The position numbers and the translations under genes are program-made. A stretch of 64,000 bases of DNA from Candidatus Woesebacteria bacterium. GTDB lineage: Bacteria > Patescibacteriota > Microgenomatia > UBA1400 > UBA1396. The notes below the pieces were generated by a model that had not been told where the DNA came from, did no database searches, and was given only the letters and a program-made list of their open reading frames with translations. The stretch lies in the NCBI GenBank assembly GCA_963749595.1, contig CAVVNJ010000003.1, forward strand, positions 89,532 to 153,531, given 5' to 3'. Positions within the stretch are counted from its first letter, which is position 1, and every line of letters starts with the position of its first letter. This document shows, in pieces, positions 484-63,683 of the stretch.

Positions 484-501
484 CACCATGATTCTATCGC
501 C

Positions 502-510
502 TGGTACAAT
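502..510 (+). promoter_or_regulatory. Extended -10 promoter TGgTACAAT, 8 nt upstream of the ATG at 519
   Basis: TG at 502-503 and TACAAT at 505-510. The identical TGgTACAAT + 8 nt + ATG arrangement recurs in front of metG (25938-25946). Confidence 0.5.
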
Positions 511-518
511 ATAACTCT

Positions 519-911
519 ATGACTGCTGATAGTTCCTCCGAAACTTCCACCCTGACGCTTCAACAAATGATTTCCGATTACCAGGATATTCATTTGTTAC
601 TTAACGCCCAGTGGCCAATCGAGTCCAAAAACGAACGGCTTTTTGCGCGTATGTTGAAATTAACGGAAGAATTGGGCGAATTATCTAATGAAGTCTTAAC
701 GAAATTGGGCTTGCAGCGCAAAGAAAAAGTGGCGGCCTATGAGGAATACCATTTGGAAGATGAACTGGCCGATGTGATTGGTTCGGCGGTTTTATTGGCG
801 ATCGAGTTGGATATTGATCTGGCCGCGATCATGAAGCGCAAGATTGACTTTACGATTGATCGCTTGAGCGCCGAGGCCGAGCGGGGCGAAGCGGCGAGTG
901 CTGATCTGTAA
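519..911 (+). CDS. MazG-like all-alpha nucleotide pyrophosphohydrolase
   Basis: 130 aa. Shows the paired acidic helices typical of the MazG/NTP-PPase fold: LKLTEELGELSNEV and HLEDELADVIGSAVLLAIELDIDL. Confidence 0.6.
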   Translation: MTADSSSETSTLTLQQMISDYQDIHLLLNAQWPIESKNERLFARMLKLTEELGELSNEVLTKLGLQRKEKVAAYEEYHLEDELADVIGSAVLLAIELDIDLAAIMKRKIDFTIDRLSAEAERGEAASADL

Positions 912-930
912 GGTCTGACCTTTGGCCAAC

Positions 931-2082
931 TTAGGCCTGGAGGGTCTGACCTTCAGGAAGTGATTCTGTTTTCCCCTCGTCTAGCATCCCGTGCCGGTAA
1001 TCCTCGATTCGTCGAATGCGAAGATCCATCTGTTTGTAACGAGTGGTGGTGATTTGGTCGTAAGATTTACGCAGCTTGGTAATGTCATCATCAAATTTAT
1101 TAAATTCTCCCTCAAACCTACCCCACTCTTGAATGAAGTCCCCGATATGACGAACAATATCGCGCAGGTGATTTTCCAACATAAAATTGCGATAACTTTC
1201 CAAAACAGTTCGGGCCACGATCAAAAAAGTGAACGGTGAAACGATCATTACCTTTTTAGACATCGCCTCCTCGATCACTTCTGGAGCATTTTGATTGATG
1301 AAAGAAAATAACAATTCATTTGGGACAAACAGAATCGCGTAATCGAGGGTTCCTTTTTCCGGATTGATATATTTGGCGACCTGAGAAATTTTCCCACGAA
1401 CATCTGTGAGAAATTGCTTGCGGGCCAGTCTTTTTTCATCTGTGGTTTCGGCTTCGGCCATTTTTTGTGCGGCGGCATAAGGGAATTTAACATCAACTGC
1501 CACGACACGCTTATTAGGAAGCAAAAGCGTAATATCTGGTTTGTCACCATCATCGAGTTTTTCTTGCCGCACATAGTGGACGCCTGCCACCAAACCAGCT
1601 GAGCGCAGAATATCATCTAGAACCTTCTCACCCCAGCCGCCGCGCTTTTGATTGTTGGAGAGAACAGAACTGAGTTTTTCGGTTGATCCGCGTAGATCTT
1701 TGACGATTTCCTGGTGCTGCTTGATTTGTTCAGCAATTTGGGAGAACTGCTCACCGCGTTTTTGTTCCAACTGTTGCAGCTCAGTGTTGCGTTGATTTAT
1801 TTCCCGTCGTAATTCCCCGACTACTTTCTCAATCTGTTCCTGCTTGTTTTTAAGATCAGTGGTAATGATTTCCTTTTCCCCAGCCAAAACACGTTTGCTT
1901 TGCTCGGTAATCTTGCCCGCCACCTCTCCAAAAACTTCGTTAACCAGACTCTTGAGGATGCTGCGCTGCTCTTCCTCGTCCTTAGCAGGAGTTGCTTTTC
2001 TTAGTTGGCTAGCCAGCCACAGCCCAACGGCGAAGATTGCTATGATGTTCACAACCACAATTAGAAAGAGTTCGAAGTTCAT
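931..2082 (-). CDS. rmuC: DNA recombination protein RmuC
   Basis: N-terminal TM helix, a long coiled coil, then the RmuC nuclease-like core (GGWGEKVLDDILRSAGL, ITLLLPNKRVVAVDVKFP, ILFVPNELLFSF, MIVSPFTFLIVARTV). Start moved to MNFELFL (ATG at 2082) because a TGcCATACT -10 box lies 6 nt upstream on this strand. Confidence 0.85.
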   Translation of the reverse strand: MNFELFLIVVVNIIAIFAVGLWLASQLRKATPAKDEEEQRSILKSLVNEVFGEVAGKITEQSKRVLAGEKEIITTDLKNKQEQIEKVVGELRREINQRNTELQQLEQKRGEQFSQIAEQIKQHQEIVKDLRGSTEKLSSVLSNNQKRGGWGEKVLDDILRSAGLVAGVHYVRQEKLDDGDKPDITLLLPNKRVVAVDVKFPYAAAQKMAEAETTDEKRLARKQFLTDVRGKISQVAKYINPEKGTLDYAILFVPNELLFSFINQNAPEVIEEAMSKKVMIVSPFTFLIVARTVLESYRNFMLENHLRDIVRHIGDFIQEWGRFEGEFNKFDDDITKLRKSYDQITTTRYKQMDLRIRRIEDYRHGMLDEGKTESLPEGQTLQA

Positions 2083-2148
2083 CGCCCCAGTATGGCACAC
2101 CCTCTTGCCAAAACCAACCCGAAACGTTAGTGTGTAACCACTTTCGCT

Positions 2149-11631: not shown

Positions 11632-11660
11632 TTGAATAATAATTAATTATGAGATATAAT
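11632..11660 (+). promoter_or_regulatory. Internal array promoter TTGAAT-N17-TATAAT, 8 nt upstream of the ATG at 11669
   Basis: TTGAAT at 11632-11637, 17-nt spacer, TATAAT at 11655-11660. It lies in an AT-rich 53-nt gap between copies 9 and 10. Confidence 0.6.
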
Positions 11661-11668
11661 TTCACGCT

Positions 11669-12673
11669 ATGAATCACGCGGAAAGATTAGAATCGCCGGA
11701 AGTTGGTTGGTCCGCGGCAATAGAGGCGGAAACTAAGCGCATCATTCGCGAGCACCTGCCCACGATTTATGCGACGGAATATTATGATGGCGATCAAGTT
11801 GACACTACTTCAAATCTCCATATTTGTTATGGCAAGAGATACCTCCCTAAGCGCCGTTCGGTTCCGGAGAAAAAGGTGGAGCAGCATCTCCGCGACTTTT
11901 TCTCTCTGGCGGATTGCTCTATTGAACTGGTTGCTATCAGTTTAGGGTTGAGCCAAGAGGTTGCGAGTAAGTTCAAGGTACTGTTTCGAAAACTCTATAC
12001 CGTGGTTTCAGTCGAGCTCCATATTAGGACAGTTGAAGTGGGACTGGCAGCGGCGGTTGAGCTGGCGGGCGGCAAAATCGATCAGGTGGGTCTTCTTTCA
12101 GTTTCCAGTTATTCCGGAGAGCTTTTTGAACGCAGCCTGTTTTCGTTGAAACCCTTGGATCCGGCCCAGGCATCAATGAGCAATCTGCCGCTAAAGGCAA
12201 TCTTAATTGCAGATGACGCGGCCCACTCCGGATTGCAGATGGCCGGCCGTGTCCGAACGGCTAAGAAATTGTATCCCAAGATCCCCGTTGTCGTTTCGGT
12301 TGGCGCAATGACCGCTCGGGCGAAAAAAACTATTTCGGCTGAGATGGGCAAAAAAGACAAATTGTTGTTTCAAGACGAGCGATTGTCGATGTCAGAATTA
12401 ATTGGTCAGGTGAGCTCTGCAGAGAAGCGCCAACAAATAAACCAACTTGCAAGGGGTTATTTTGCCTCCCAGAGTATAATTACCAGCCCTGAAATCAGGG
12501 ATTTCTTTATTGACGAATGTTTGCGAGCGACCCACATTGTGACGCCGTTCAAGCTGCCGGATTCCACCTCCAATGGTTATCTGAACTCGATATTAATTGA
12601 TGGTGTCAGCAATTACTTCAGTCTGTCTGTCCAACCTTCCTTTCTCAATATGCTCTATCCCGGTAGAATCTAG
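11669..12673 (+). CDS. Array paralog 10/24 (EYY-insert subtype, 334 aa)
   Basis: AETKRIIREHLPTIYATEYYDGDQVD...YLPKRRSVPE; HLRDFF; FRKLYTVVSVELH; IADDAAHSGLQM; VVVSVGAMTARA; ATHIVTPFKLPDSTSNG; ends LYPGRI-stop. Confidence 0.9.
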   Translation: MNHAERLESPEVGWSAAIEAETKRIIREHLPTIYATEYYDGDQVDTTSNLHICYGKRYLPKRRSVPEKKVEQHLRDFFSLADCSIELVAISLGLSQEVASKFKVLFRKLYTVVSVELHIRTVEVGLAAAVELAGGKIDQVGLLSVSSYSGELFERSLFSLKPLDPAQASMSNLPLKAILIADDAAHSGLQMAGRVRTAKKLYPKIPVVVSVGAMTARAKKTISAEMGKKDKLLFQDERLSMSELIGQVSSAEKRQQINQLARGYFASQSIITSPEIRDFFIDECLRATHIVTPFKLPDSTSNGYLNSILIDGVSNYFSLSVQPSFLNMLYPGRI

Positions 12674-13663: not shown

Positions 13664-13692
13664 TTGATTTCTTGCTGTTATAAGTCTATAAT
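13664..13692 (+). promoter_or_regulatory. Internal array promoter TTGATT-N17-TATAAT, 8 nt upstream of the ATG at 13701
   Basis: TTGATT at 13664-13669, 17-nt spacer, TATAAT at 13687-13692, in the 58-nt gap between copies 11 and 12. Confidence 0.6.
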
Positions 13693-13700
13693 ATCCGCCC

Positions 13701-14636
13701 ATGGCAAAAAAAGAGTCCATTTTATCACCAGAAATTTTCATCAACGCGGCTATTGAAAAAGAAACTTGCCGGGTAATTTCCGAACATCTACCTACTATTT
13801 ACTCTGTCAAAGTGACAATTCAAGACGGCAAAAATGAGCTGGAACTATTTAGCCCTCGAGAAGTTGAGCGGCACATCAGGCATTTTTTTGCTGTATCCGA
13901 CAAGGTAATCGAAAGCTGCGCGCGTGGGCTTAATGTCAAAAAAAATACTCTTCAAACCTTCCAGTTATTTTTCCGCCGGTTGTATACCGTAACCACAATC
14001 GAGTCTCAAATCAGTGCCGTCGAACAGGGAATTGAATTGGCCCGGCAAATGGCTGGAGGTGAAGAGTCTGGAATTCTCCATCGTCACAGTGGCGGTGAGT
14101 CGGGCCGGCTATTTACTCGAACGGCGCGGTTAACCTCTCCTACCGATCTATCTCAGCAGAAATCACCAAAAGTAATTTTATTCACCGATGACGCTGCTCA
14201 TTCTGGTGAGCAAATGCGGATAAACACTATAATTACCAAAGATTTTTTTCCTAAGGTTCCGATCATCATTTCGGTGGGGGCGATCAGCGATCGGGCGCAA
14301 GCAACTATTCGTCGTGGTCTTAGTTCAAAGGATTGCTTAATTTTTCAGGAAGTAAAACCTTGCTTGAAGACCATGATTGACGAACTGCCTGTAGAGGAAA
14401 TGCGACAAGAAATGATGGCGTTTGCGAATTGTTTTTTTGCCAATCATATGAAAAATGCGAATAGCATGGAGAGCGGTTTGTTGTCCACACACATTGTTAC
14501 CCCGTTCAAATTGCCGGATTTGACCTCAAATGGACGTTTGGGCTCAATCCGCTCTTTGTTCTCCAAAAAAGAGGTATATTTCACTATGCGTTCCGCTGAT
14601 TCGATGCGAGATCGCTGTTACCCACAAGTGTTATGA
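13701..14636 (+). CDS. Array paralog 12/24 (short subtype, 311 aa)
   Basis: EKETCRVISEHLPTIYS; HIRHFF; FRRLYTVTTIESQ; FTDDAAHSGEQM; IIISVGAISDRA; STHIVTPFKLPDLTSNG; ends CYPQVL-stop. Confidence 0.9.
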   Translation: MAKKESILSPEIFINAAIEKETCRVISEHLPTIYSVKVTIQDGKNELELFSPREVERHIRHFFAVSDKVIESCARGLNVKKNTLQTFQLFFRRLYTVTTIESQISAVEQGIELARQMAGGEESGILHRHSGGESGRLFTRTARLTSPTDLSQQKSPKVILFTDDAAHSGEQMRINTIITKDFFPKVPIIISVGAISDRAQATIRRGLSSKDCLIFQEVKPCLKTMIDELPVEEMRQEMMAFANCFFANHMKNANSMESGLLSTHIVTPFKLPDLTSNGRLGSIRSLFSKKEVYFTMRSADSMRDRCYPQVL

Positions 14637-16500: not shown

Positions 16501-16529
16501 TTGAAAAATATCATGTTATAAGATAAAAT
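16501..16529 (+). promoter_or_regulatory. Internal array promoter TTGAAA-N17-TAAAAT, 9 nt upstream of the ATG at 16539
   Basis: TTGAAA at 16501-16506, 17-nt spacer, TAAAAT at 16524-16529, in the 47-nt gap between copies 14 and 15. Confidence 0.6.
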
Positions 16530-16538
16530 CTTGGACCT

Positions 16539-17498
16539 ATGTCAAGGTCACTGGAAAAAGCCAGTCGCAAGGTTCAGCAGGAAACCCAACGGGTGATCAC
16601 CGATCATTTGCCGACGATTTTTGCGACCGCCTTTTTTCAAAGTCCCGAGGTTGATCTCAATTCAAAGCAGGAAATTGCTATCAGCTTGGGAAAGCAGTAT
16701 CTTCCGGTTCGCCGACCTATTCCTCCCGAGGAGGTGGCGAATCATATCAAGGTTTTTTTTGCCAAGGCGGACGAGGTCATTGAACAAATCGGCCGGGGCC
16801 AGAAGCTTAGACCAAGCTCGGTGGATAAATTTAAGTTGCTCTTTCGAAAACTTTATACTGTCGCCTCAATTGAGTCTCACGTTGCCGCCATCGAGTCTGG
16901 CCGCGCGGTGGCAATTAATTTGGCCGGCGGTGACGAGGCAGCGGTATTATGCCCTCATCGGGACCGACGATCAGCCGAGTTATTTGAACGAAGTGCCAGA
17001 TTGGCCTTTACGGAGGATCCCTACGAATCTAAACAAAAGCCTCAGCACCGCGTGGTCCTTTTGATCGATGATGTGGCTCACTCCGGCGATCAAATTACTG
17101 CTCATCTTCACGGCGCTCACTTGAATCATCCTGGATTGCCGGTAGTAATTTCATTGGGCACCGTCACTGACCGGGCAATGGCGAGGTTGCGCGAAGAGAT
17201 GGAGTCCCATGACGTTCTAATTTTCCAAGAGAAAAAACTTTCCTTAGCGGAAATGATCGACCAAATCAAATCTCCTTCTGTACGAAAAGAGTTAAGAATG
17301 CTGGCCGAAGATTTTTTTGATCGTCACACCCTGATGCTTGATGGCATTAACGCAACGCATATTATCACCAGCTTCAAACTCCCTGACGGGGTATCGAACG
17401 GTTGTTTGGGAACGCTTTCGATTCAGGGAATTTGCCATCATTTTTCTGTTAAGCCAGTTGAGCCTTCCAGAGACCGCCTGTATCCGGAGGTGATATGA
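16539..17498 (+). CDS. Array paralog 15/24 (EYY-like insert subtype, 319 aa)
   Basis: QETQRVITDHLPTIFATAFFQSPEVD...YLPVRRPIPP; HIKVFF; FRKLYTVASIESH; LIDDVAHSGDQI; VVISLGTVTDRA; ATHIITSFKLPDGVSNG; ends LYPEVI-stop. Confidence 0.9.
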   Translation: MSRSLEKASRKVQQETQRVITDHLPTIFATAFFQSPEVDLNSKQEIAISLGKQYLPVRRPIPPEEVANHIKVFFAKADEVIEQIGRGQKLRPSSVDKFKLLFRKLYTVASIESHVAAIESGRAVAINLAGGDEAAVLCPHRDRRSAELFERSARLAFTEDPYESKQKPQHRVVLLIDDVAHSGDQITAHLHGAHLNHPGLPVVISLGTVTDRAMARLREEMESHDVLIFQEKKLSLAEMIDQIKSPSVRKELRMLAEDFFDRHTLMLDGINATHIITSFKLPDGVSNGCLGTLSIQGICHHFSVKPVEPSRDRLYPEVI

Positions 17499-43909: not shown

Positions 43910-43918
43910 AATAACCTC

Positions 43919-44676
43919 ATGGCAACTTCAACTTCCTGGGAAAAAGTGGGCGCTTGGTATCAGGATGTCGTCGGACCGGCCGGACACTATTACCACCAGC
44001 ACGTGGTTCTTCCCGGTACGCTGCGTTTATTGGATCTCAAGTCCGGTGATCGCCTGCTCGATCTTGGCTGCGGGCAAGGGGTGCTGGCCCGGACGATGCC
44101 CAAAGGGATTGGATATTTGGGAATCGATACTGCCAAAAATCTTATCGAATCAGCAAAAAAACAAGACCATGATCCCGAACATGAATATCTTGTCGCTAAT
44201 GCCGCCGGTCGACTCGATCTTTGGCGTGATTTTACTCATGCGGCTTGTGTGCTCGCCCTGCAGAATGTCGAATCTCCGCAGCGGTTGATTAATAATGCCG
44301 CTCAAGCCTTGGTCGATAATGGTCAGTTAATAGTCGTTATCAATCACCCTTGTTTCCGCATTCCGCGCCAGTCGAGTTGGGAAGTGGATGAAAAAAATAA
44401 GCTGCAGTATCGCCGGATCAATCGTTATCTTTCCCCGCTCAAGGTGCCGATTGCGGCGCATCCGGGGCAAAAAAATTCCGCGGTCACCTGGTCGTTCCAT
44501 TGGCCGTTGCAGGATTTATTTGGTTGGTTGCGCGATTCTGGTTTTGTGGTCGAGTCGCTGGAAGAATGGTCCTCGGACAAGACGAGCGAGGGCAAGCGGC
44601 GAAAATGGAAAATCGGGCGCGGGCGGAATTTCCGCTGTTTTTGGCAATCAGGGCTAAAAAAAGTGATCGCTCATAA
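43919..44676 (+). pseudogene. Class I SAM-dependent methyltransferase with a 1-nt frameshift near the 3' end
   Basis: LLDLGCGQGVLAR (motif I). After ...SDKTSEGK the annotated frame drifts into RRKWKIGRGRNFRCFWQSG...-stop at 44764. From about 44596 the +2 frame reads AAKMENRARAEFPLFLAIRAKKSDRS-stop (44674-44676), which looks like the native tail. Confidence 0.6.
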
Positions 44677-48373: not shown

Positions 48374-48438
48374 TAATATATTATTATGTTACTTAAGCAA
48401 GTTTGACAAGGCGAAAAGCCTTTTGCTAGGGTTGTAAC

Positions 48439-49536
48439 ATGCCACAAATTGATCTCAAGCCCGCTAAAGACGAAAAAATCACGAAAGAAAAGGAAAGAAA
48501 GCCTGCCAAGCGGCCAAAAATTTCTTTGGCCATTGATAAAACCGCTCTAAAAAAATTGTCCTTGGTGGCCGTGGCCTATTCGCACGTGGAACGGGAGTGG
48601 TTTCCCACGGAAGAATCGTATTTAGCGGAAGTTGAAGTGGAAGAACGGTCCCAGGAAGTGTTGGATGAATTAGAGGATCTCGGTATTCCTGCCCGCGGTT
48701 ATCCGGGCAACCAATATTTTTTAACCAATTTGCTGGTTGACCAACCTAGCTTAGTTTTAAACTTAGTTGATACGTTGCGCGGCAAAGACAAATTACAAAC
48801 TTCGGTTCCGGCGGCCCTTGAGCTGTCCAGCATCCCCTACACCGGCTCCGGCATGGAAGGGCTGGTGATTAGCAACAACCGCAATCTCACCAAGCGGCTA
48901 TTACTGGCCTACGACATCCCTACCCCGGATTTTCAGTTTATCCGCCGGGCGGGAACCAAGGTGAGCGAGGACCTTGGCTTTCCGCTGATCGTCAAATTGA
49001 ACGAAAGTGGCGGCAGTGTTGGGATTGACAACAAAGCGGTAAAGGAGTCGCAAAAGGATGTCCAAAAGAAAGTCGACTTAATGGTTTCTCGGTACAAGCT
49101 GCCGGTGGTGGTGGAGCGCTTTATTGACGGTCCGGAGATTACGGTCGTGGTCTATGATGACGGCGAAAAGAAACAGGTTTTTGCCGGGGAAAAAATCTTT
49201 CGGAGCAAGGCCGATGGCAAGCATTTTTTCACCTCGATTGAGAGCTATGACGATATTAGGGCTTACCGCTACAAGTTCATTGACGACGAACTTGCGGAAA
49301 ACAAGATCGCCCGCTTAGCAATTCGAGCCTTCAATGCCCTTCAGTACAAAGATTATGCCAAGTTTGATGTGCGCGTGGATGAAGCGACCGGCATTCCCTA
49401 TTTTACCGATTGTAACGCCAATACTGCTTTTGGGCCGGACTTGGGTTTGCCAATGACTGAGGTGATGGCTTTGCACGGGGTCTCTTTCTCCGATTTACTG
49501 GCCAGCCTGATGAGCAAATATGCCAAACAACTCTGA
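48439..49536 (+). CDS. ATP-grasp enzyme, D-alanine--D-alanine ligase-like
   Basis: 365 aa. LVLNLVDTLRGKDKLQTSVPAALELSSIPYTGSG, NRNLTKRLLLAYDIPTP, FPLIVKLNESGGSVGI, and a Ddl-like C-terminus (DVRVDEATGIPYFTDCNANTAFG). Confidence 0.65.
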   Translation: MPQIDLKPAKDEKITKEKERKPAKRPKISLAIDKTALKKLSLVAVAYSHVEREWFPTEESYLAEVEVEERSQEVLDELEDLGIPARGYPGNQYFLTNLLVDQPSLVLNLVDTLRGKDKLQTSVPAALELSSIPYTGSGMEGLVISNNRNLTKRLLLAYDIPTPDFQFIRRAGTKVSEDLGFPLIVKLNESGGSVGIDNKAVKESQKDVQKKVDLMVSRYKLPVVVERFIDGPEITVVVYDDGEKKQVFAGEKIFRSKADGKHFFTSIESYDDIRAYRYKFIDDELAENKIARLAIRAFNALQYKDYAKFDVRVDEATGIPYFTDCNANTAFGPDLGLPMTEVMALHGVSFSDLLASLMSKYAKQL

Positions 49537-50155: not shown

Positions 50156-50193
50156 AGCTGACTTTCTCTATTTTTATAGTAGAATAGCGGTCT

Positions 50194-50613
50194 ATGGCCG
50201 AAGCATATCAAGTTGCTCTTTTACATACCAAAGCTTATCGCATCTTGCGTCAGGAAATTGCGGCGCTGTTAGTCCCCCATCAGGTGACCATGTTGGAGTG
50301 GGTTCTGCTTTGTTCGCTCGATCTGGAGCAAGGAATTCGCCTGTCTCAAGTAGCCGATTATATTGGGGTGGAAGCGCCGCTTATTTCCCAATTGATACGT
50401 TCCCTCCAAAGCAAGGGTTTGGTTAAGCTTTCTCCAGACAAAGATGACAAACGCGCCAAGCGTTTAGTGCTGACGGTTAACGGCTTGAAATTAGTGACCG
50501 AAAGCAACCAGCAATTAGAGGGCGAGCTGGCGGATTGTTTGTCGGGTCTGACCGAGACCGACGTTTCTGCTCATCTGCGGGCTTTGGAAACGATTATTCA
50601 CCACGACGATTAA
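50194..50613 (+). CDS. MarR-family transcriptional regulator
   Basis: 139 aa. Winged HTH: VTMLEWVLLCSLDLEQGIRLSQVADYIGVEAPLISQLIRSLQSKGLVKLSPDKDDKRAKRLVLT. TAGAAT at 50180-50185 lies 8 nt upstream of the ATG. Confidence 0.85.
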   Translation: MAEAYQVALLHTKAYRILRQEIAALLVPHQVTMLEWVLLCSLDLEQGIRLSQVADYIGVEAPLISQLIRSLQSKGLVKLSPDKDDKRAKRLVLTVNGLKLVTESNQQLEGELADCLSGLTETDVSAHLRALETIIHHDD

Positions 50614-51821
50614 CGTCGGTCAAAACGGTAAATTACCCCCGCCCGATCATCGGATAGATATAACCTTCCGGTACTGTCAAATTCTAAATCAACCGGACGA
50701 CCCCAAATTTCACCCTCCCGGTACCAACCGGAAACCACATCTTCAGCTTGCGGCGGGCTATCCCCCAACTTCACCCGGACAACTTTGAAACCAGTCGGAA
50801 CGGAGCGATTCCAAGAACCGTGGTAGGCCACGAGCAGATCCCCTTGCCAGTCGGCGGGAAACAGGGGCGAAGTAATAAAAGTTAAGCCCAACGGTGCCGA
50901 GTGGGCCGGAACGGCGAAAACCGGTGGTTGGGTGTTGGCGCAGAAGCCAGCATCCTTTTGTCCGAATTTTTGGTCAAAAACCTGATTGCCGTAGCAGATC
51001 GGCCAGCCATAATTTTTGCCGTCCTCCAATTGATTTATCTCGTCCGGTGGCAGATTGTCGCCCAGAAAATCCCGGCCCATTTCCGTGCCCCAAAGTTCAT
51101 TGGTATTTGGCCGAAAGCGGATAAAAACCGAGTTGCGCAGGCCGGTGGCGAAAATCCGTGGCCCTGTCCCTTCAAGATCCGTGACGATTACTCCAATCAG
51201 AGGACTTTTTTCCAGACAGACGTCGCAGGTGGAGCCGATGGAAACATAAACTTGCCGGTCCGGGCCAATGGCGATCGTGCGGGTGAAGTGCCGACCTCCG
51301 GATGGAAGATCCGTCAAGATTTTTTCCCGGGTGGCGGTTAGGGAATTCTCTTGCCAACGGTAGCGAACCAAGCGGGTTTCCTCCGCGATCAGTAGGGTGG
51401 TGTCAGCAAAAGCCAAGCCATGGGGGCGGTCGAGGCCGCTGGCGACGACTTTGATTTCATCGGCCCGCCCATCTTGGTCGCGATCCGGCAAGGCAATTAT
51501 GGTTCCGGCTTCAGGTTGCGAGACCAGCAGCGTTCCATCCGGGCTGAAGGCGATATCCCGCGGGCCGCTTAGGTTACGGGCAAAAACAGTGACGGTGAGA
51601 AAATCAGGCAGAGCCAGCGGAACTTCCGGAGCCTGGCCCGTGGAAGCTAACTGCGGTGGCGCCGAGGGCAACGGTGGCACCCTGCTAAACAGTGGGCGCG
51701 CCCCGCGATACAAATTGTACGCGGGGCGCGCCCACCAAACCGTCCCAATAATTACTACGAGCGCCAGCAAAATGCCGGGCAACAAAATCGGATTACGAGC
51801 TGGTCGGAGTTGATTGGCCAT
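50610..51821 (-). CDS. PQQ-dependent sugar (glucose/sorbosone) dehydrogenase, beta-propeller
   Basis: N-terminal TM/signal anchor. GLRNSVFIRFRP, ELWGTEMGRDFLGDNLPPDEINQLEDGKNYGWP, HSAPLGLTF are typical of the soluble aldose sugar dehydrogenase family. Confidence 0.8.
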   Translation of the reverse strand: MANQLRPARNPILLPGILLALVVIIGTVWWARPAYNLYRGARPLFSRVPPLPSAPPQLASTGQAPEVPLALPDFLTVTVFARNLSGPRDIAFSPDGTLLVSQPEAGTIIALPDRDQDGRADEIKVVASGLDRPHGLAFADTTLLIAEETRLVRYRWQENSLTATREKILTDLPSGGRHFTRTIAIGPDRQVYVSIGSTCDVCLEKSPLIGVIVTDLEGTGPRIFATGLRNSVFIRFRPNTNELWGTEMGRDFLGDNLPPDEINQLEDGKNYGWPICYGNQVFDQKFGQKDAGFCANTQPPVFAVPAHSAPLGLTFITSPLFPADWQGDLLVAYHGSWNRSVPTGFKVVRVKLGDSPPQAEDVVSGWYREGEIWGRPVDLEFDSTGRLYLSDDRAGVIYRFDRR

Positions 51822-51832
51822 TAATTAAAACA

Positions 51833-52102
51833 TTACCACTTCTTCCACATCATCATCTTCCATAGATGACCGACGAGGGCGACACCCACCAGGACCCAAC
51901 CCCAAAACATGGTGTCCGCAACACTAAAGTAGCTAACGACGAGTAAGGCAATACCGGCGCCACCTAACAGGTGAATCAAACCAAAGGAACTCCCACAACA
52001 GGACATCCACCCCATACCCATCATCTTGTCATGAGGCATCATCCCCTTTTCCATCATCATTCCTTGATCCATAGTTTTGGCAGGTCGACCGCGGCGCGGC
52101 AT
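51833..52102 (-). CDS. Small Met/Cys-rich membrane protein (89 aa)
   Basis: MDQGMMMEKGMMPHDKMMGMGWMSCCGSSFG, followed by two TM helices and KMMMWKKW. SD AAAGGAG upstream. Confidence 0.45.
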   Translation of the reverse strand: MPRRGRPAKTMDQGMMMEKGMMPHDKMMGMGWMSCCGSSFGLIHLLGGAGIALLVVSYFSVADTMFWGWVLVGVALVGHLWKMMMWKKW

Positions 52103-52860: not shown

Positions 52861-52910
52861 GTTTGGCTAAATCAGCGCCGTATTGTCAACTATTTGCTAC
52901 AATCCCCCTC

Positions 52911-54257
52911 ATGTTAAGCCAATATAGCGAGCGCTTACCTCAAGCTCAGGAGGTTTTGGATCAATTAAGAAGTCTCCGCGAATTATTAGCGGCTAATATC
53001 GAGGTGCTGGATTTTAAAAGCTTACCGCTTAAAACGATGAGCTCGTCTGAATTTCTCCTTGCCTTTGGTAAACAGATTGGTTCCAAAAAAGAGCTCGGCC
53101 AATTAATCGATCAACGACCAGATCTACAATTGGGTTCTTTTGTTCACGAGCCAGCGCTTATTTTACTTCCCGATTCGGTCAATCCAATCGGTTTGATCGC
53201 GGTGATCACTAGATTGCAGCGCTCTGAAGACCCCTATACCTTTGGTTGTCGCGATCTGTATGTTCTCAATAGTCGTCGGAAGGCGATCAGTTTCCGCAAC
53301 GTGATACCCAGCGGATATCGGTTGGCCATTAGTCTGACCGAGCAAGCGTCGTTCGATGATGAGTCCTGGCAAGAAGGCGTCATGAGCCGTTTTGCCTTTG
53401 ATCCGCCAGAGCAGAAGATTATTTTAGGGGAAATACGCCAGTTTCAGCATCTAAAAGTCGCTCTTCATGAGTCCGGCCACGCCTGGGCTTTTCACTCAAA
53501 GACTGATCGCTATTCCCCGGATCAGTCTCGCTTGCGGGATAGCGATGTCGATCTTTGGCTCGATCAAAAAAAGGGTGCGCGCAAGTTAAAGTTACCGCCA
53601 ATTTACGCGGTGCAAGAAATTTCCTATTCCGAACGCCTGGCTAGTGTCATTGCGAGGTTGACCATGTCCGGTCTGGAAAAAGTTGGCTTCATAGATCAGG
53701 TTGACGACTCGTTTTTGGAGCCATCATTACAAACTTATGATGTGGCTCATGCGCGTTTCATTTTAGAAAATTATCCCGAAGAGGCTAGCAAGCTCTTTGC
53801 CTCAAAATATGCCCGCTCCCCCAAGGGATTGGCACAGAGTGGAGAGATACTGCAGGCAACGAATTCCCTGGAGCACTCCGTCCTCGCCAAAATTGCCACT
53901 TTGGGTAAGCCGACGCAAACCAAGCGACATTTTTTTGGTAATCGGCGAGAAGAAATTTGGGAGAAAACGATTGGCGATGAGAATTATTTAATTGTTATTT
54001 GGCGAACAAGTGACCGAAAATTTATCTCGGTGGAATTTCAACGGTCGCGGGAGACCGGGGACGAGTACGATCAGCCTTGGAGCAAAGTCGAAGTTAACCA
54101 TTTCTTTGGCGCAACGGTTTATTCGGGTGATGGAGACGAAGATGGTGAATTAATTCTTGAGGTTGCGGCCGGAATGGAAGTGCCGGATTATCGGGTGAAG
54201 CTGGCGCGGGTTCAGGAGTTGCTCCAGCAAATTCTCGCGAAGTTCGAGTTGCGCTAG
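52911..54257 (+). CDS. Uncharacterised HExxH protein, tandem paralog A (448 aa)
   Basis: Start moved to MLSQYSERL. TGcTACAAT (52895-52903) lies 7 nt upstream, and the track's longer N-terminus is antisense to the HD gene. Motifs: ALHESGHAW (HExxH), SERLASVIARL, LGKPTQTKRHFFG. Confidence 0.6.
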   Translation: MLSQYSERLPQAQEVLDQLRSLRELLAANIEVLDFKSLPLKTMSSSEFLLAFGKQIGSKKELGQLIDQRPDLQLGSFVHEPALILLPDSVNPIGLIAVITRLQRSEDPYTFGCRDLYVLNSRRKAISFRNVIPSGYRLAISLTEQASFDDESWQEGVMSRFAFDPPEQKIILGEIRQFQHLKVALHESGHAWAFHSKTDRYSPDQSRLRDSDVDLWLDQKKGARKLKLPPIYAVQEISYSERLASVIARLTMSGLEKVGFIDQVDDSFLEPSLQTYDVAHARFILENYPEEASKLFASKYARSPKGLAQSGEILQATNSLEHSVLAKIATLGKPTQTKRHFFGNRREEIWEKTIGDENYLIVIWRTSDRKFISVEFQRSRETGDEYDQPWSKVEVNHFFGATVYSGDGDEDGELILEVAAGMEVPDYRVKLARVQELLQQILAKFELR

Positions 54258-54272
54258 CGTTATAATCGCCTT

Positions 54273-55619
54273 ATGGATAATCGAGAGAATACCGCTACTA
54301 CCGAGAAGCCAACTATTCTTGAACAGCTCAGAACCCTAAACAGATTATTTCAGGGGAAAATTGAAATTAAGGATCTGGCTGATTTGCCTCTTAAAATTCT
54401 AACTCTAGCGGAATTTCAAAAAGCTTATTGGTTAATTCTAATGTCAAAAAAGAAATGTGCCGCTTTGGCCCTAATGCGACCTGAGCTTCAATTTGGATCC
54501 TATGAAGGGTTTCCAGCCTTGATTTGCTATCCCAATGATAAAAATCCCTTTGGATTTATTGCCGTGTTGGACGAAGACTTATCTCCCAATAAGATTGATG
54601 ATTATCGTTTCCGTTGTTCCCGCCTGTTCCTAATGAATGAGCGCCGGCAAACTGTTCCGCTTCAGAGTTTTCTACCAGCGGGAATAGGGCTTAATTTTTT
54701 CTTGGCCAATGCTACCTGGAAAAATGAGAAGGCCGAAGCCGAAGATGAGGCGATAGGTCATAAATTTGCTTTTGAACTTAAGAGTAAGAAGGTTCGTCTG
54801 GGGGAAATTCACCGATCCAATCATCTTGATTGGGCGTTGCATGAGATTGGCCATTCCTGGTGTTTCGATCAGAATATTGACCCATTCTCCAGAGACCAAA
54901 CAAAACTGAGAAGCGATAGTATGCACTTGATTGAGCCTACAGCCAAAAGGCTATTTTTTCGCCACTTAAAGAGACCTTTAACTGGTGTTGTGCAAGAAAT
55001 GATGACTTCCGAAAGATTAGCAAGCATTATTGCCCGGGTTTTACGAGCAATTTTAGAAAAGAACAACTTTACCGCCCATGCGGGTAATTTGCCGCTTGAG
55101 GAAGCAATTCAATCCTATGACAGCTATATTTCCCGATACGTTTTGGAGAATTTCCCGAATCAAGCAAAAGAATTTTTTGCTTCCCGATGGAGCCGATCGA
55201 CAAAAGGTCTAGAACAAAATCGGGAAATATTGCGAATGACTAGCGATCTAGAGAGATCAACCTTGAAGCGTATTCAGGAATTGGGAAAGCCGACGTCAAC
55301 GCGAAAAAATATTTTCACTGGGAAAGCTGTCGAGACATGGGAAAAACAGAATAACTCTGGTGATTTTTTAGTTGATGTTACCCGAACTATTAACGGTCTA
55401 TTCATTTCCGCCAATATTAGCTGGATGGGACGAGAAAAAGACCAGCCTTGGATTATCGTCAGGATAGGTTCTATTTATGGAGCAGCTATTTCCCAGGGAA
55501 TGGGAAGAGATATAGAAATGCTCAATCGAGTTGTCGCAGGAGTTAAAAATCCGGACTATGCCGAAGTCATGAAAAAAGTCGAAACCCAGGTTGATTTAGT
55601 CCTGTCCCAATTTGTCTAA
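54273..55619 (+). CDS. Uncharacterised HExxH protein, tandem paralog B (448 aa)
   Basis: Same length as paralog A and collinear with it. ALHEIGHSW (HExxH), SERLASIIARV, LGKPTSTRKNIFTG. TATAAT at 54261-54266 lies 6 nt upstream of the ATG. Confidence 0.6.
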   Translation: MDNRENTATTEKPTILEQLRTLNRLFQGKIEIKDLADLPLKILTLAEFQKAYWLILMSKKKCAALALMRPELQFGSYEGFPALICYPNDKNPFGFIAVLDEDLSPNKIDDYRFRCSRLFLMNERRQTVPLQSFLPAGIGLNFFLANATWKNEKAEAEDEAIGHKFAFELKSKKVRLGEIHRSNHLDWALHEIGHSWCFDQNIDPFSRDQTKLRSDSMHLIEPTAKRLFFRHLKRPLTGVVQEMMTSERLASIIARVLRAILEKNNFTAHAGNLPLEEAIQSYDSYISRYVLENFPNQAKEFFASRWSRSTKGLEQNREILRMTSDLERSTLKRIQELGKPTSTRKNIFTGKAVETWEKQNNSGDFLVDVTRTINGLFISANISWMGREKDQPWIIVRIGSIYGAAISQGMGRDIEMLNRVVAGVKNPDYAEVMKKVETQVDLVLSQFV

Positions 55620-58736: not shown

Positions 58737-59196
58737 TGGCACCTCGCAACAACGGCGCGATCCCCTCGGCCCAGGGTTTGACCACCGAATCGAGTTGGGC
58801 ATAGGGATCACCATTTAATTTCAATAAACGGAACAAGACTTCACCATGATTGGCTTTCCAAGCGTCATGGATTAAGTCGATGCCGCGGTTAAAGAGGACG
58901 GCTTCGTAGCGAATATCGCCCAAACCAATAAAACCAGCTTTTTTACCGGTAAAATCCGCCTTTTTCATTTCTTCCAGTAACGGCACAAAGAAAGGATTGA
59001 TCGTGCCACGTTCCCAAGTGGAAGTGGCGAAGATAAAGTTTTGGTTATTTTGAATCAAATCGATTTTGGTTTGTTCGGCGCGGTGTAGTTCGGTCTGGAA
59101 GCCTTGAGCCTTGAGAGCTTCAGCCACGGTCTCCACGACGATCTCGACGTTGCCGGAGGTGGAGGCATAGATGCAGTGGATTACTGACTCGGACAT
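58729..59196 (-). CDS. Flavodoxin
   Basis: 155 aa. HCIYASTSGNVEIV (FMN phosphate loop T/S-x-T/S-G-N), IFATSTWERG, GFIGLGD. TATACT (59205-59210, reverse strand) lies 8 nt upstream of the ATG. Confidence 0.8.
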   Translation of the reverse strand: MSESVIHCIYASTSGNVEIVVETVAEALKAQGFQTELHRAEQTKIDLIQNNQNFIFATSTWERGTINPFFVPLLEEMKKADFTGKKAGFIGLGDIRYEAVLFNRGIDLIHDAWKANHGEVLFRLLKLNGDPYAQLDSVVKPWAEGIAPLLRGANG

Positions 59197-59231
59197 GTTT
59201 AATCAGTATATCAGCCGGGCTGACGATGAGG

Positions 59232-59766: not shown

Positions 59767-59809
59767 GATTAATTTGACAATTCATCAGCTAGAGATCATA
59801 AATGCACTT

Positions 59810-60358
59810 ATGACCAAGCAATTGTTCACCAAAATCCTTATCTGGGGCACTGCTCTTTGGGTCCTTGGCTACCTACTGGGGATAATCCTTTTCATGTTCG
59901 TTCCGACTTCTCTGATCGGATGGATTATTACCCCGATTGGCATTACTTTAACCATCTGGGTTTTGCTCAAGAAATTTGATCAAAAAAACTTCCGTGATTA
60001 TTTTGCGATCAGTTTGCTTTGGACTACCGTTGCCATCGTGCTTGATTATTTTTTGCTGGTCCAATTGTTTAAACCGGCCGACGGCTATTACAAACTGGAC
60101 GTCTATTTGTACTATCTAGCAACGTTCACTATTCCCTTGATCGTCGGATGGAAAAAATCGACATTAGTTTCAAAAAAACCCTGGCGGCTTTTTATGCTTT
60201 CACTAATCGTCGCGATTGTTTCTCCAATTTTGCACAATCTGTTTTATGGTTTGACCGGCATTGAGGAGGGAGTGTTTTTCAGCTTAACTTTTATCGCCAT
60301 GGCAATCGCGGTGGGTTCAGCGCTGTGTGGTTGGCTGAAAGCTTCTGTAAGCCGGTAA
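59810..60358 (+). CDS. Hypothetical integral membrane protein
   Basis: Start moved to MTKQLF (ATG at 59810). TTGACA (59774-59779) plus ATAAAT (59798-59803) lie upstream, with the -10 box 6 nt from the ATG. About five TM helices. Confidence 0.5.
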   Translation: MTKQLFTKILIWGTALWVLGYLLGIILFMFVPTSLIGWIITPIGITLTIWVLLKKFDQKNFRDYFAISLLWTTVAIVLDYFLLVQLFKPADGYYKLDVYLYYLATFTIPLIVGWKKSTLVSKKPWRLFMLSLIVAIVSPILHNLFYGLTGIEEGVFFSLTFIAMAIAVGSALCGWLKASVSR

Positions 60359-60638: not shown

Positions 60639-60700
60639 TAACGGCTCTTTCTCAGTCAGCAGAATCCTTTCGCTAGCGGTATCATAGCACTTGAACTAAC

Positions 60701-62794
60701 CTATACGGTGACTTTAAGTCGCGCATCAAGGATCTGAATTCCCTTTCCCTTTGGAAAAACGACGACCGGATTAAGATCCAACTCAGTGATTTCCGGATGG
60801 TCCGCCATTAACTGCGCTACCCGTCCGATCGTCTCAACGACCGCTTTCCGATCAAGCTTTGGCTGGCCACGAATTCCTTGAAATATCGGACTAAATTCGA
60901 CTTCGTCAACCATCCGCTCCGCGTCGCGCCTAGTTAACGGCACTAAACCGAACCGCACATTTTTAAAAACCTCCGCGTAGATCCCACCCAAACCGAAGAC
61001 CAAATAGGCGCCGGTTTGTGGCTCGCGCTTGGCGCCGATAATAGTTTCCAGGCCGTCCGACACCTGTTGCTCAACCAGAAATCCTTCGATCTTGGCTTTT
61101 GGTTTGTGCCGGGCCACTGTTTTTAACAGATTCAACGCGCTGGCGGCCGCATTGGTCGGGGTAACGTTGAGGAGTGTGCCGCCGACCTCCGATTTATGGA
61201 GAATATCCGGCGAGACAATTTTTAACACCGCGGGTGAACCGACCTTTTTCAGTGCCGTGGCCACTTGGTTTTCCGAGTGGATGAATTGGTGGCGAACCGT
61301 TGGCAGACGATACAAACGTAGCAATTCCAAAACGTCCGGTTCGCTGAGCCAACCCTCCGGATTGTGCCTTTTTAGAAGCTTTACCGCTTGCCGCCGATTG
61401 ATGGAATGGAAGCGAAATGGATTAGTGACGTCGGTTTTGCGCCAGACTTTCCAGCGGTTGAGCAATGAAAGTGAATGTGCGCCCGGTTCAGGGAATTCAG
61501 CGGTGGCTACATCCCCGGTTTGTAAGATTTGGCGACCGGTTTCTACCAAATCGTCACCAAGGAAGGCCGCGACTAAAGGCTTGCGGCTGGCGCGTTTTTG
61601 CTCGGTGATCAGGCGCGCGGTTTTGGCTACCTCGGTCATGGTTTGGGGTGTGAGAATGACTAGGACCGCGTCAACGCCCGGGTCGGCCAAAACCGCGCGC
61701 AATGCCGCTCCATAGCGGATCGCGTCCGCATCGCCGAGGATATCGACCGGATTTTTAATCGATGCTGATGGGGGTAAAAATTTCTGCAGTTCCTGGGTAG
61801 TGGCTGGCGAAAGTTGGGCCAGCTTCAATCCGTCCTTGGCTAATTGATCGGCCGCAATCACCCCAGGACCACCGGCATTGGTCACGACCGCCACGCGATT
61901 GCCTTTGGGAAGTCGGTTGTTGGCAAAGCATTCGGCCAGGGAAAACATCTCCTCCAGCGATTCCGCCCGGATCATGCCGCTTTGGGCGAAAAGAGCCTGG
62001 TAAGCGCCATCACTGCCGCCGAGAGCTCCGGTGTGCGATCGGGCCGCGGCCGCCCCAGATTCGGTTCGTCCAGACTTCAATACAATAATCGGTTTCGGCC
62101 GCGGCCCGCGATGCAATTTCTTGGCAGTGCGTAGTAATTCCGGCAGGGCCGTTAATTGTTCAACGTACAGCATGATGACTTGAGTTTTGGGATCTTGGCG
62201 TAGATACTCAAGAATCTCCTGTTCGCCAATTTGCGCTTTATTACCCAGGCTAATGAAGTTGGACATCCCTAAACCACTGCCGCGGGCATAATCCAACACC
62301 GCCGCTCCCAAAGCTCCGCTTTGCGAAACAAAGGCCACGTTTCCCTCACCCGGCATTACCGGTGCGAACGTAGCATTTAAATGCAAAAAAGGACTGATAA
62401 TTCCGAGACAATTTGGGCCAATCAAGGTCAGGTGATATTTTTGGGCGATGGCTAGCAGTTCTTTCTCCCCCGCTTCGTTGCCGGACTCGCGAAAGCCGGA
62501 GCTAATGACCAGGGCCGCGGGAATTTTTTTCCGGCCAACTTCGATTAAAACTTTGGGAACGATTGGCGCCGGAGTAGCGATGATCGCCAAGTCGACGTGC
62601 TGGGGAATCGGTTTGACCGTGGGATAAACTTTCCGGCCAAACAATTCGCCGCCCTTAGGATTGACTGGGAAAATTTTACCCTGATAGCCCTGGGTAACCA
62701 GATTTTTGACCAGATCATTACCCACGCTGCCCGGCTGACTGGAAGCGCCAATCACGGCAATGGAGTGTGGTCGGAAAACAGCGTCTAAGTTCAT
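60701..62794 (-). CDS. ADP-forming acetyl-CoA synthetase (fused alpha-beta, acetate--CoA ligase family)
   Basis: 697 aa. SIAVIGASSQPGSVG (CoA-binding), FVSQSGALG, RSHTGALGG (phosphohistidine loop), then a C-terminal ATP-grasp domain. Confidence 0.9.
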   Translation of the reverse strand: MNLDAVFRPHSIAVIGASSQPGSVGNDLVKNLVTQGYQGKIFPVNPKGGELFGRKVYPTVKPIPQHVDLAIIATPAPIVPKVLIEVGRKKIPAALVISSGFRESGNEAGEKELLAIAQKYHLTLIGPNCLGIISPFLHLNATFAPVMPGEGNVAFVSQSGALGAAVLDYARGSGLGMSNFISLGNKAQIGEQEILEYLRQDPKTQVIMLYVEQLTALPELLRTAKKLHRGPRPKPIIVLKSGRTESGAAAARSHTGALGGSDGAYQALFAQSGMIRAESLEEMFSLAECFANNRLPKGNRVAVVTNAGGPGVIAADQLAKDGLKLAQLSPATTQELQKFLPPSASIKNPVDILGDADAIRYGAALRAVLADPGVDAVLVILTPQTMTEVAKTARLITEQKRASRKPLVAAFLGDDLVETGRQILQTGDVATAEFPEPGAHSLSLLNRWKVWRKTDVTNPFRFHSINRRQAVKLLKRHNPEGWLSEPDVLELLRLYRLPTVRHQFIHSENQVATALKKVGSPAVLKIVSPDILHKSEVGGTLLNVTPTNAAASALNLLKTVARHKPKAKIEGFLVEQQVSDGLETIIGAKREPQTGAYLVFGLGGIYAEVFKNVRFGLVPLTRRDAERMVDEVEFSPIFQGIRGQPKLDRKAVVETIGRVAQLMADHPEITELDLNPVVVFPKGKGIQILDARLKVTV

Positions 62795-62824
62795 GGGTGG
62801 CCTCGAACTCAGTTTAGCAAATTA

Positions 62825-63637
62825 TCAATCGATTAAGGACTCGATGATCTTTTTAGCATCGGCCGCAAAGATATCACGCGGTAGAGCTCCGGGAACGATC
62901 ACTGCTTCATTATCCGACGGGCGCACGAAGATGGTGGTTGGCACGCCGGTCACGCTAAACATTGACATCCGGACTTGGCTACCATGCACCGTTTGGTCAA
63001 AATAGGTTTCGTTTTGATTAATTTCGGTCAGGCAGGTGACATATTCTTCCCGACTTGACACGTCATAGCGATAGCTCGAATCGCCATTTTCCCGAACTAG
63101 ATCAGCCATATTTTCCCAAACGCGATTTTGTTGGTTCAAGCAATAAAGCGAGGCAATCGCCACCCGCAGGCTAGGGTTGTCTCGGTACGGTAGGACCGTA
63201 TGCAGATACCAAATCCGCAGTTGATCGGGATATTTTTGGCGCAGATCAGCAATATTTTCGGTCAGTGTCCGGCCGCTAAACCCTTCTTCGGTCAAATCGG
63301 CAAAAACAAAAACTTCCAGATCAGGGTTGCTTGGTCCGGTCGAGTAACCTTGGCGTAACTCATCAGTAATAGAGACTTTTTTGCGCGGGTAAGTGCTACC
63401 CGTTGAGCTGGGGAATTCGGTCTCAGGTAGATTAGCAGATGGAGTCGCGGTTGGTATTGGCGAGGATACCAGCTCATCAGGAATGGAATTGAGACCTCGT
63501 TGTAGACCCCAGAAATATCCAATCACTCCGGCTTCGACAATGAGCATTAAAACTAAAACGATAATTGCCAGTATTAATAGTCGATAACGATGGGGTTGAG
63601 CAGCAGCGGGAGTCGGAAATGGCAAGTGATCTCTCAT
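62825..63637 (-). CDS. DsbA-like thioredoxin-fold protein with N-terminal TM anchor and no CxxC motif
   Basis: Start moved to MRDHLPF (ATG at 63637, with TATAAT 9 nt upstream on this strand). TM helix LLILAIIVLVLMLIV. DsbA-like VFVFADLTEEGFS (where CPxC is expected), LYCLNQQNRVW, VTGVPTTIFV. Confidence 0.5.
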   Translation of the reverse strand: MRDHLPFPTPAAAQPHRYRLLILAIIVLVLMLIVEAGVIGYFWGLQRGLNSIPDELVSSPIPTATPSANLPETEFPSSTGSTYPRKKVSITDELRQGYSTGPSNPDLEVFVFADLTEEGFSGRTLTENIADLRQKYPDQLRIWYLHTVLPYRDNPSLRVAIASLYCLNQQNRVWENMADLVRENGDSSYRYDVSSREEYVTCLTEINQNETYFDQTVHGSQVRMSMFSVTGVPTTIFVRPSDNEAVIVPGALPRDIFAADAKKIIESLID

Positions 63638-63683
63638 TTTAAAGAGATTATAGTACTTTTCGTCGTGTTTAGTTCGTCGAGGA

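Follow-up and report, generated by a model that had tools for sequence, protein, structure and literature searches.

Promoter-like -10 hexamers next to start codons predict leaderless mRNAs in a Woesebacteria-type genome

Introduction

Leaderless genes can be recognised by a TA-like signal located ~10 bp before the start codon (PMC3160421), and the group C signature of GeneMarkS-2 is a Pribnow box located 6-8 nucleotides (nt) from the start, a pattern found frequently in Actinobacteria (90%) and in Deinococcus-Thermus (97%) (PMC6028130). Leaderless genes are experimentally supported in M. tuberculosis (PMC3898074) and, as cited in PMC6028130, in D. deserti. Leaderless orthologues are also reported to switch initiation mode with phylogenetic distance (Zheng et al., 2011; PMC3160421). 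In bacteria of the Candidate Phyla Radiation (CPR), or Patescibacteria, ribosomes are reduced and factors for their biogenesis are few (PMC12641178). The only CPR start-site data that we found are for N. lyticus and were derived from RNA-seq coverage (PMC12641261). Our literature search returned no paper linking leaderless mRNAs to Patescibacteria/CPR, though a prior group C classification may stand in the supplementary tables of GeneMarkS-2. Here we analyse a 64,000-nt stretch of DNA (the window; positions 89,532 to 153,531 of contig CAVVNJ010000003.1, assembly GCA_963749595.1, deposited as Candidatus Woesebacteria bacterium), in which about a third of the genes (24-26/77) appear to lie directly behind a housekeeping-sigma promoter whose -10 hexamer nearly abuts the ATG. 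We put at roughly 0.85 the probability that leaderless or near-leaderless mRNAs are made from most of these genes.

By its predicted layout, the window has the known TA-led, or group C, architecture of Actinobacteria and Deinococcus-Thermus, here in Patescibacteria. As in those systems, a Pribnow box stands near the start (6-8 nt there), a Shine-Dalgarno (SD) sequence is missing, the start codon is AUG, more than 20-30% of the genes are involved and SD-led genes, internal or leadered, occur alongside them. Switches of mode between orthologues are seen here as well, in the lineage of the window for efp, sod, trpS and tatD. The phylum is different, however, as are the moderate to low guanine-plus-cytosine (GC) content (38-55%) and the frequent TGn extended -10, and, unlike the M. 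tuberculosis and D. deserti cases, the architecture in the window is known from sequence alone. The individual transcripts would resemble the lambda cI mRNA made from PRM in E. coli, which starts at the A of its AUG and is bound directly by ribosomes without an SD (PMC10491246), but what is a rare exception in E. coli would be routine for about a third of the genes in the window. Archaeal leaderless transcripts (GeneMarkS-2 group D) likewise place leaderless first cistrons beside SD-led internal cistrons; there, a TATA box is found ~26 nt upstream of the start, whereas the window has a bacterial -10 at 6-9 nt together with a -35 or TGn. Group B genomes, which have a non-SD ribosome-binding site (RBS) and belong mainly to the Fibrobacteres-Chlorobi-Bacteroidetes (FCB) group, share with the window few SD sites and an A/T-rich motif near the start codon. 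In group B, however, the motif precedes all genes, operon-internal ones included, and is not a promoter, while the motif in the window is promoter-like and mostly missing from internal genes.

Results

Enrichment of -10 hexamers upstream of start codons

A preliminary description of the window had listed 24 genes with a -10 box close to the ATG and read them as leaderless. All 24 hexamers are present at the listed coordinates, all 24 starts are ATG and all gaps, counted from the end of the hexamer to the A, are 6-9 nt; one additional site, before ATG 43919 (TAGAAT, gap 6), had gone unlisted. Across the 25 sites, the gap is 6 nt (nine sites), 7 nt (five), 8 nt (eight) or 9 nt (three).

For the statistics, 77 genes were called from open reading frame (ORF) length and codon bias without recourse to a -10 rule, and the start was taken as either the longest-ORF start or the first ATG. 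Hexamers were scored as loose (TANNNT) or strict (T1, A2, T6 and at least five of six matches to TATAAT), with the background expectation taken from gaps of 10-40 nt and 1532 non-start ATGs as a further control. At gaps of 6-9 nt, TANNNT was found for 23-27 of the 77 genes, compared to ~7 expected, and strict hexamers for 17-18, compared to ~1.3-1.8 expected. Only 4.1% (loose) or 0.8% (strict) of the non-start ATGs had a hexamer at these gaps, and the binomial p for the enrichment over them ranged from 3e-12 to 6e-22. Not one of 1000 shuffles of the upstream 60 nt reached the observed count (mean 1.25, max 6). Intergenic DNA in the window is barely AT-richer than coding DNA (GC 46.5% versus 49.3%). 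In-frame stop codons were ruled out as the source of the signal, since the enrichment survives the removal of stop-like hexamers (TA[AG]NNT), with 14 hexamers left versus 3.1 expected.

The sites are given below with coordinates, strand, promoter elements and the gap before the ATG; the last line is an example of the SD mode.

505..521, + strand: TGgTACAAT extended -10, 8 nt, ATG 519 (MazG-like gene)
481..496, - strand: TAGAAT, 7 nt, ATG 483 (DNA polymerase III delta-like, or holA-like, gene)
2080..2094, - strand: TGcCATACT extended -10, 6 nt, ATG 2082 (rmuC)
11632..11671, + strand: TTGAAT-17-TATAAT, 8 nt, ATG 11669 (promoter within an array of phosphoribosyltransferase (PRTase)-like genes)
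13664..13703, + strand: TTGATT-17-TATAAT, 8 nt, ATG 13701
16501..16541, + strand: TTGAAA-17-TAAAAT, 9 nt, ATG 16539 (start as in an independent gene caller)
21179..21219, + strand: TTGAAA-17-TATAAT, 9 nt, ATG 21217 (start as in an independent gene caller)
25938..25957, + strand: TGgTACAAT extended -10, 8 nt, ATG 25955 (metG; N-terminus MxKFYITT)
28230..28244, + strand: TATAAT, 6 nt, ATG 28242 (tatD; start as in an independent gene caller)
29055..29070, + strand: TAAAAT, 7 nt, ATG 29068 (glycosyltransferase)
30565..30579, + strand: TAAAAT, 6 nt, ATG 30577 (ORF of 81 amino acids (aa)), a weak case
31426..31442, - strand: TATAAT, 8 nt, ATG 31428 (efp)
32493..32508, - strand: TACAAT, 7 nt, ATG 32495 (epmA)
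36272..36309, - strand: TTGACG-17-TACCAT, 6 nt, ATG 36274 (start as in an independent gene caller)
37172..37187, - strand: TATAAT, 7 nt, ATG-CCG 37174 (fpg N-terminus; gene interrupted downstream)
38066..38080, + strand: TATAAT, 6 nt, ATG 38078 (aminoacyl-tRNA editing domain protein)
43907..43921, + strand: TAGAAT, 6 nt, ATG 43919; overlaps the stop codon of the upstream gene and is weak, as the TAG stop could give it by chance
48403..48441, + strand: TTGACA-18-TGcTAGGGT, 6 nt, ATG 48439 (ddl)
50180..50196, + strand: TAGAAT, 8 nt, ATG 50194 (MarR-family regulator)
51819..51838, - strand: TGgTAATGT, 8 nt, ATG 51821; weak hexamer (4/6)
52895..52913, + strand: TGcTACAAT, 7 nt, ATG 52911
54261..54275, + strand: TATAAT, 6 nt, ATG 54273
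59194..59213, - strand: TGaTATACT, 8 nt, ATG 59196 (flavodoxin)
59774..59812, + strand: TTGACA-18-ATAAAT (or -17-CATAAA), 6 nt, ATG 59810
63635..63652, - strand: TATAAT, 9 nt, ATG 63637; putative start, the ORF reaching to TTG 63760
34643..34656, - strand: AAAGGAG 5 nt before ATG 34642 (sod), SD mode

Among the sites listed in the preliminary description, those before 30577, 51821 and 63637 (where the start is only putative) are weak.

The sites resemble sigma-70-type promoters

The hexamers in the window conform to TAnAAT: T1, A2 and T6 do not vary and position 3 is unconstrained. At a spacing of 16-18 nt, four or more of the six positions of TTGACA were matched for 9/25 sites, compared to 12% of TANNNT hexamers window-wide (p=0.002). 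Perfect TTGACA boxes stand at 48403 and 59774 and a TTGACG at 36304, and the four predicted array-internal promoters have TTGAAA, TTGAAT or TTGATT. TGn is directly upstream of the hexamer at 7/25 sites (background 6%, p=5e-4), mostly those lacking a -35, as extended -10 promoters would predict. Downstream of the hexamer, purines are depleted from position 6 to the ATG (14/55 bases, p=2e-4), position -1 is a pyrimidine at 19/25 sites and, at 14/25, no purine precedes the A of the ATG within the start-selection window. In E. coli, the start-selection window spans positions 6-10 after the -10, and a purine that follows a pyrimidine is preferred. With gaps of 6-9 nt, the A of the ATG falls at positions 7-10 after the hexamer. 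For 49 bacteria, the centre of the transcription-start positions is 7 bp downstream of the -10 (PMC12641261). In a generic two-hexamer promoter scan, which is too noisy for counts and was used only for the coincidence of top matches, three of the five best matches within 1-20 kb were the sites ending at 11660, 13692 and 16529.

SD-led genes form a separate class

Of the 77 genes, a -10 at 5-10 nt was assigned to 26 (two of them doubtful), an SD only to 22 and neither signal to 29. The SD and -10 classes do not overlap, the strict-hexamer genes being without GGAG, GAGG or AGGA at -17 to -4, and the coexistence of two initiation modes proposed in the preliminary description is upheld. Its statement that the listed genes have no SD applies to all but 31428, where an AGGAG is found 14 nt upstream of the ATG, directly 5´ of the -10 box and hence outside the predicted transcript. 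Its list of SD-led genes is borne out for 34642, 35037, 35829, 37304, 38039, 41339, 41728 and 52102, which have AGGAG, GGAGG or AAGGA 4-6 nt before the ATG; 40142 has only a weak AAGGA at 3-nt spacing. An SD like that of sod is also present before 56991. The start codon is ATG for 25/26 genes of the -10 class versus 42/51 of the others.

About half of the 29 genes with neither signal are tightly coupled internal genes (spacing of at most 12 nt or ATGA overlaps), and several others are gene fragments. Most of the tightly packed genes of the array at 2981-25931 have no hexamer, with weak SDs or stop-start overlaps instead, and the same motif before both operon-internal and first genes, as in group B, was not found in the window. 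The majority of the SD-led genes, namely sod, hsp20 and trpS with their neighbours, fall in the 36000-44000 region, which has a GC content of 53-54% versus 46-50% elsewhere and a strongly negative AT skew.

Independent evidence for the start codons

The preliminary description had used the -10 rule to pick starts where ORFs over-extend, which is circular; 52911, 37174 and 483 are now independently confirmed, while 63637 and 59810 are plausible only. For the protein N-termini, the evidence is indirect and comes from Fpg, a paralogue pair and MetRS (methionyl-tRNA synthetase). Position 1 of the Pfam Fapy_DNA_glyco profile is the Met-Pro at 37174, and Pro2 is the catalytic N-terminal residue of Fpg, which would leave no room for another fpg start. 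When the product of 52911 is aligned with its 448-aa paralogue (54273-55619), residue 1 of the paralogue corresponds to 52911. The closest public genome (CAZEEI010000001.1, here L001) is without an ATG at 489 but retains TAGAAT-7-ATG at the position of 483. For metG, the N-terminus MxKFYITT of MetRS is conserved family-wide and anchors the ATG. Independent gene calls on identical contigs agree for nine starts (16539, 21217, 25955, 28242, 29068, 30577, 31428, 32495 and 36274). The longest ORF over-extends at 52509, 59774, 63760, 37240, 2100 and 489; upstream of 59810, the TTG "start" of the over-extended ORF is the -35 box itself.

Source lineage and comparison loci

The named matches of the window's MetRS are Daviesbacteria and "Patescibacteria group", and the best named matches of its elongation factor P (EF-P) are Woesebacteria (63%) and Cerribacteria (64%), with Microgenomates and Patescibacteria also found. 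The locus from the Candidatus Woesebacteria metagenome-assembled genome (MAG) GCA_021209405.1 (L022) is syntenic with the window over more than 12 genes. Because of these matches and this synteny, we assign the source genome to the Patescibacteria/CPR, with Microgenomates/Woesebacteria as its apparent type. L001 is also syntenic and has a MetRS 78% identical to that of the window, ~75% nucleotide identity across shared genes and a GC content of 48.6%. We do not follow its title, "uncultured Pseudomonadales bacterium", which is probably a mislabel given the synteny with the window and best protein matches to Patescibacteria. An Rfam scan at gathering thresholds gave no match in the window and no tRNA genes were found there; the 16S rRNA 3´ end carrying the anti-SD was looked for in all fetched loci and not found, and the canonical anti-SD is a prediction from nothing but the AAGGAG sites.

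The arrangement is conserved and recurs in other lineages

All comparison loci are metG or efp neighbourhoods. For L001, L014, L016 and L017 together, we detected 19 strict hexamers at gaps of 6-9 nt, compared to ~1.5 expected, with a peak at 6 nt, and in L022, for which the database's own gene calls were used, 12/27 genes have a strict -10 at gaps of 5-9 nt and seven others are SD-led. The arrangement is kept amid diverged surroundings for metG, the glycosyltransferase gene, epmA, the holA-like gene, rmuC, the MazG-like gene and fpg. The glycosyltransferase gene has TAAAAT or TAGAAT 6-7 nt before the ATG in L001, L014, L016, L017 and L022, wherever the tatD stop codon lies, and epmA has its hexamer at 6 nt in L016 (TATAAT), L017 (TACAAT), L022 (TATGAT) and L023 (TACAAT). 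The holA-like gene has TATACT (L016) or TACAAT (L017 and L022) at 6-7 nt, and fpg of L022 reads TACAAT-6-ATGCCA. By hexamer (CATACT), the rmuC site at 2082 is among the weakest, yet TGnCATACT is kept in L001 and L016, and L017 has TACCAT at 8 nt. TACAAT is found 6-8 nt before the ATG of the MazG-like gene in L015, L016 (where there is also a more distal one) and L022; in L001, the equivalent of ATG 519 is lost and a new TATACT-6-ATG is present downstream. At the weak site 30577, the TAAAAT doubles as an in-frame stop and is not conserved in L001.

Other genes change mode, with efp, sod, tatD and trpS being leaderless-type in some relatives and SD-led in others. The efp gene has TATAAT-7-ATG in L014 and is SD-led in L016, L017, L022 and L023. 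The tatD site of the window is not kept, the gene being SD-led in L022 and coupled to the upstream gene in L017. Conversely, trpS is SD-led in the window and has TATAAT 9 nt before the ATG in L022. The hsp20 gene was SD-led in every relative examined.

The signal is uneven among labelled Patescibacteria loci (6/21 genes in L023, 3/14 in L020 and 2/25 in L021); it is also present in loci from Saccharibacteria, Kaiserbacteria and Minisyncoccia and was not found in proteobacterial control loci. A broader sample consisted of 80 unlabelled metagenome loci (545 genes) carrying a MetRS 45-62% identical to that of the window. These have 105 strict hexamers at gaps of 5-9 nt, compared to 23.4 expected, with 46 at a gap of 6 nt. 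SD-like motifs precede 0-20% of the genes at most of these loci and 22-36% at two GC-rich loci. Again, the pattern is uneven, with no such hexamers in L082, L094 and L008. For metG, with the ATG anchored by homology, a -10 hexamer was found 4-10 nt upstream in 48/82 lineages (at exactly 6 nt in 24) and an SD alone in only 6/82. Among 45 of these hexamers, T1, A2 and T6 are present in 45/45, as the filter required; A4 is present in 44/45 and position 3 is free, neither of which was required. TGn precedes 25 of them and position -1 is a pyrimidine in 41. This profile reads as a classical extended -10 and not as an A/U-rich ribosome site.

Discussion

All of the sequence-based tests that we ran fit sigma-70-type -10 elements whose predicted transcription start is the A of the ATG itself or lies 1-3 nt ahead of it, in support of the leaderless reading put forward in the preliminary description. 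RNA polymerase would start ~7 nt (range 6-10) downstream of the -10, favouring a purine after a pyrimidine, and the first transcribed base is for this reason expected to be the A of the ATG or, for gaps of 8-9 nt, a base 1-3 nt upstream at most. To translate the leaderless mRNA, the ribosome (70S, or 30S with initiation factor 2 (IF2) and formylmethionyl-tRNA (fMet-tRNA)) would then bind directly to the 5´-terminal AUG. Genes that plausibly need a regulatory leader (hsp20, sod and trpS, the last with its T-box-like element) would, like many operon-internal genes, use a canonical AAGGAG SD, and the many tightly packed internal genes with neither signal are probably served by stop-start coupling.

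Several observations weigh against this reading or limit it. A recognisable -35 is found at only 9/25 sites, and the generic promoter scan showed no overall enrichment (25 found versus 27.2 expected). The hexamer coincides with a stop codon at 29068, 43919, 16539, 30577 and 48439. The link to the first position in an operon is weak (15/26 in the -10 class versus 20/51, p=0.15), and on this basis we do not claim the sites as markers of operon starts only. The taxonomic placement is based on two proteins and synteny, not on rRNA. In addition, the 8-9-nt gaps of 11 sites reach the edge of the start-selection window and may give leaders of 1-3 nt. Within 25 nt upstream of 11 sites there is a co-directional gene, and the genes at these sites are probably transcribed by read-through as well. 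The last two points bring in a refinement, rather than a contradiction, of the leaderless reading: the promoters would be real, but only the gaps of 6-7 nt would be truly leaderless, with those of 8-9 nt giving 1-3-nt leaders, and the sites just behind a co-directional gene would make most of their protein from read-through polycistronic mRNA by termination-reinitiation. The sharp peak at 6 nt in the relatives and metagenome loci, set against the longer gaps at 11/25 sites, speaks for such a distinction, and the use of coupling is shown by those array genes that lack a signal and have ATGA overlaps. Still, we consider the refinement unlikely to be the better account. From position 6 to the end of the gap, the 8-9-nt cases are nearly all pyrimidine (TCT, CCC, CTC, TCT, TCT), which leaves no good start base ahead of the A of the ATG, and mRNAs with leaders of 0-5 nt act as leaderless in other bacteria, as known from the mycobacterial literature.

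Two readings in which the sites are not promoters fare worse. The hexamers could belong to transcripts with leaders and act there as an A/U-rich ribosome-binding or enhancer element of the non-SD type, like the GeneMarkS-2 group B motif, given that they stand at the position of an RBS, that SD use is low in the related loci and that some sites are within tight operons. The motif is not general A/U richness, however, but TAnAAT with fixed T1, A2 and T6 and a free position 3; it is missing from most of the tightly packed internal genes, TGn and -35 boxes are enriched upstream of it and purines are depleted downstream, which together make an RBS element highly improbable. We give still less credence to chance or artefact, that is, to AT-rich intergenic DNA, stop codons or starts picked to fit the rule. 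It is true that the preliminary description admitted a rule-based choice of some starts and that some hexamers overlap stop codons. Yet starts chosen blindly give the same enrichment, intergenic and coding DNA have nearly the same GC content, shuffles and positional controls do not reproduce the count, the signal persists without stop-like hexamers and the arrangement is conserved in orthologues, and we regard chance as refuted.

Beyond the window, the odds seem to us only slightly better than even that leaderless initiation from an (extended) -10 abutting the ATG is widespread, and often dominant, across the Patescibacteria/CPR, with SDs in a minority of genes; we draw this from the excess of hexamers at the 80 metagenome loci, the low SD use and the metG sites. 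If this is true for the phylum as a whole, the Patescibacteria, a very large group, would join Actinobacteria and Deinococcus-Thermus as a third bacterial stronghold of leaderless translation. Gene finders tuned to SDs can misplace starts in CPR MAGs, and a -10 rule corrects over-extended ORFs. Genetic tools for cultivated Patescibacteria need the right promoter and 5´-end design, for which a TGnTAnAAT-N6-ATG cassette would be a native solution. Leaderless initiation is often regarded as the ancestral mode, and its heavy use in a deep, streamlined lineage would bear on the evolution of translation initiation. The division between leaderless housekeeping genes and the SD-led trpS, hsp20 and sod suggests that leaders are retained mainly where regulation needs them.

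Other features of the window

Upstream of trpS (start 41339), a T-box-like leader is found at 41436-41639 (- strand), matching Rfam RF00230 at 34.2 bits (E 4.8e-6, local search), far under the gathering score of 93. Its stem I is strongly shortened, with the loop AGAAUGGG (UGG being a Trp codon), and the T-box core is AAGGUGGCACCGC.

The fpg gene (36525-37174, - strand) is split, with the N-terminal 60 aa (37174-36992) and a fragment comprising the end of the N-domain and the H2TH (36869-36525) in different frames. The gene would be either a pseudogene or the product of an assembly frameshift; its predicted leaderless promoter is intact.

The region at ~44800-48438 comprises 3.6 kb without long ORFs, including a 989-nt gap before ddl, and has no Rfam match. 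Fragments within it correspond to a partial NAGPA domain, a response-regulator receiver cut at 68/111 profile positions and a PAS fragment, and the region looks like a decaying two-component or cell-wall locus.

Two adjoining 448-aa paralogues (52911-55619, + strand) are 38% identical, have no Pfam or NCBIfam match and are each preceded by their own predicted leaderless promoter.

The array at 2981-25931 (+ strand) covers 23 kb and consists of ~25 tandem co-directional paralogues of 298-334 aa each, ~40% identical to one another, which share a DDVxHSGxQ motif resembling a phosphoribosyl pyrophosphate (PRPP)-binding motif and have weak matches to Pfam PRTase-CE (11/23 members, best E 2.5e-7). 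It is located between a trpR-like gene and metG, is absent there in L001, L014-L017 and L022, and holds four predicted internal leaderless promoters. The array looks like a lineage-specific expansion.

Finally, efp adjoins a gene (30862-32495, - strand, for the pair) that is above the NCBIfam EpmA equivalog cut-off (368 versus 286.9 bits; EF-P lysine aminoacylase), an adjacency that is kept in L016, L017, L022 and L023. The efp-epmA pair suggests a beta-lysylation-type modification of EF-P in this lineage.

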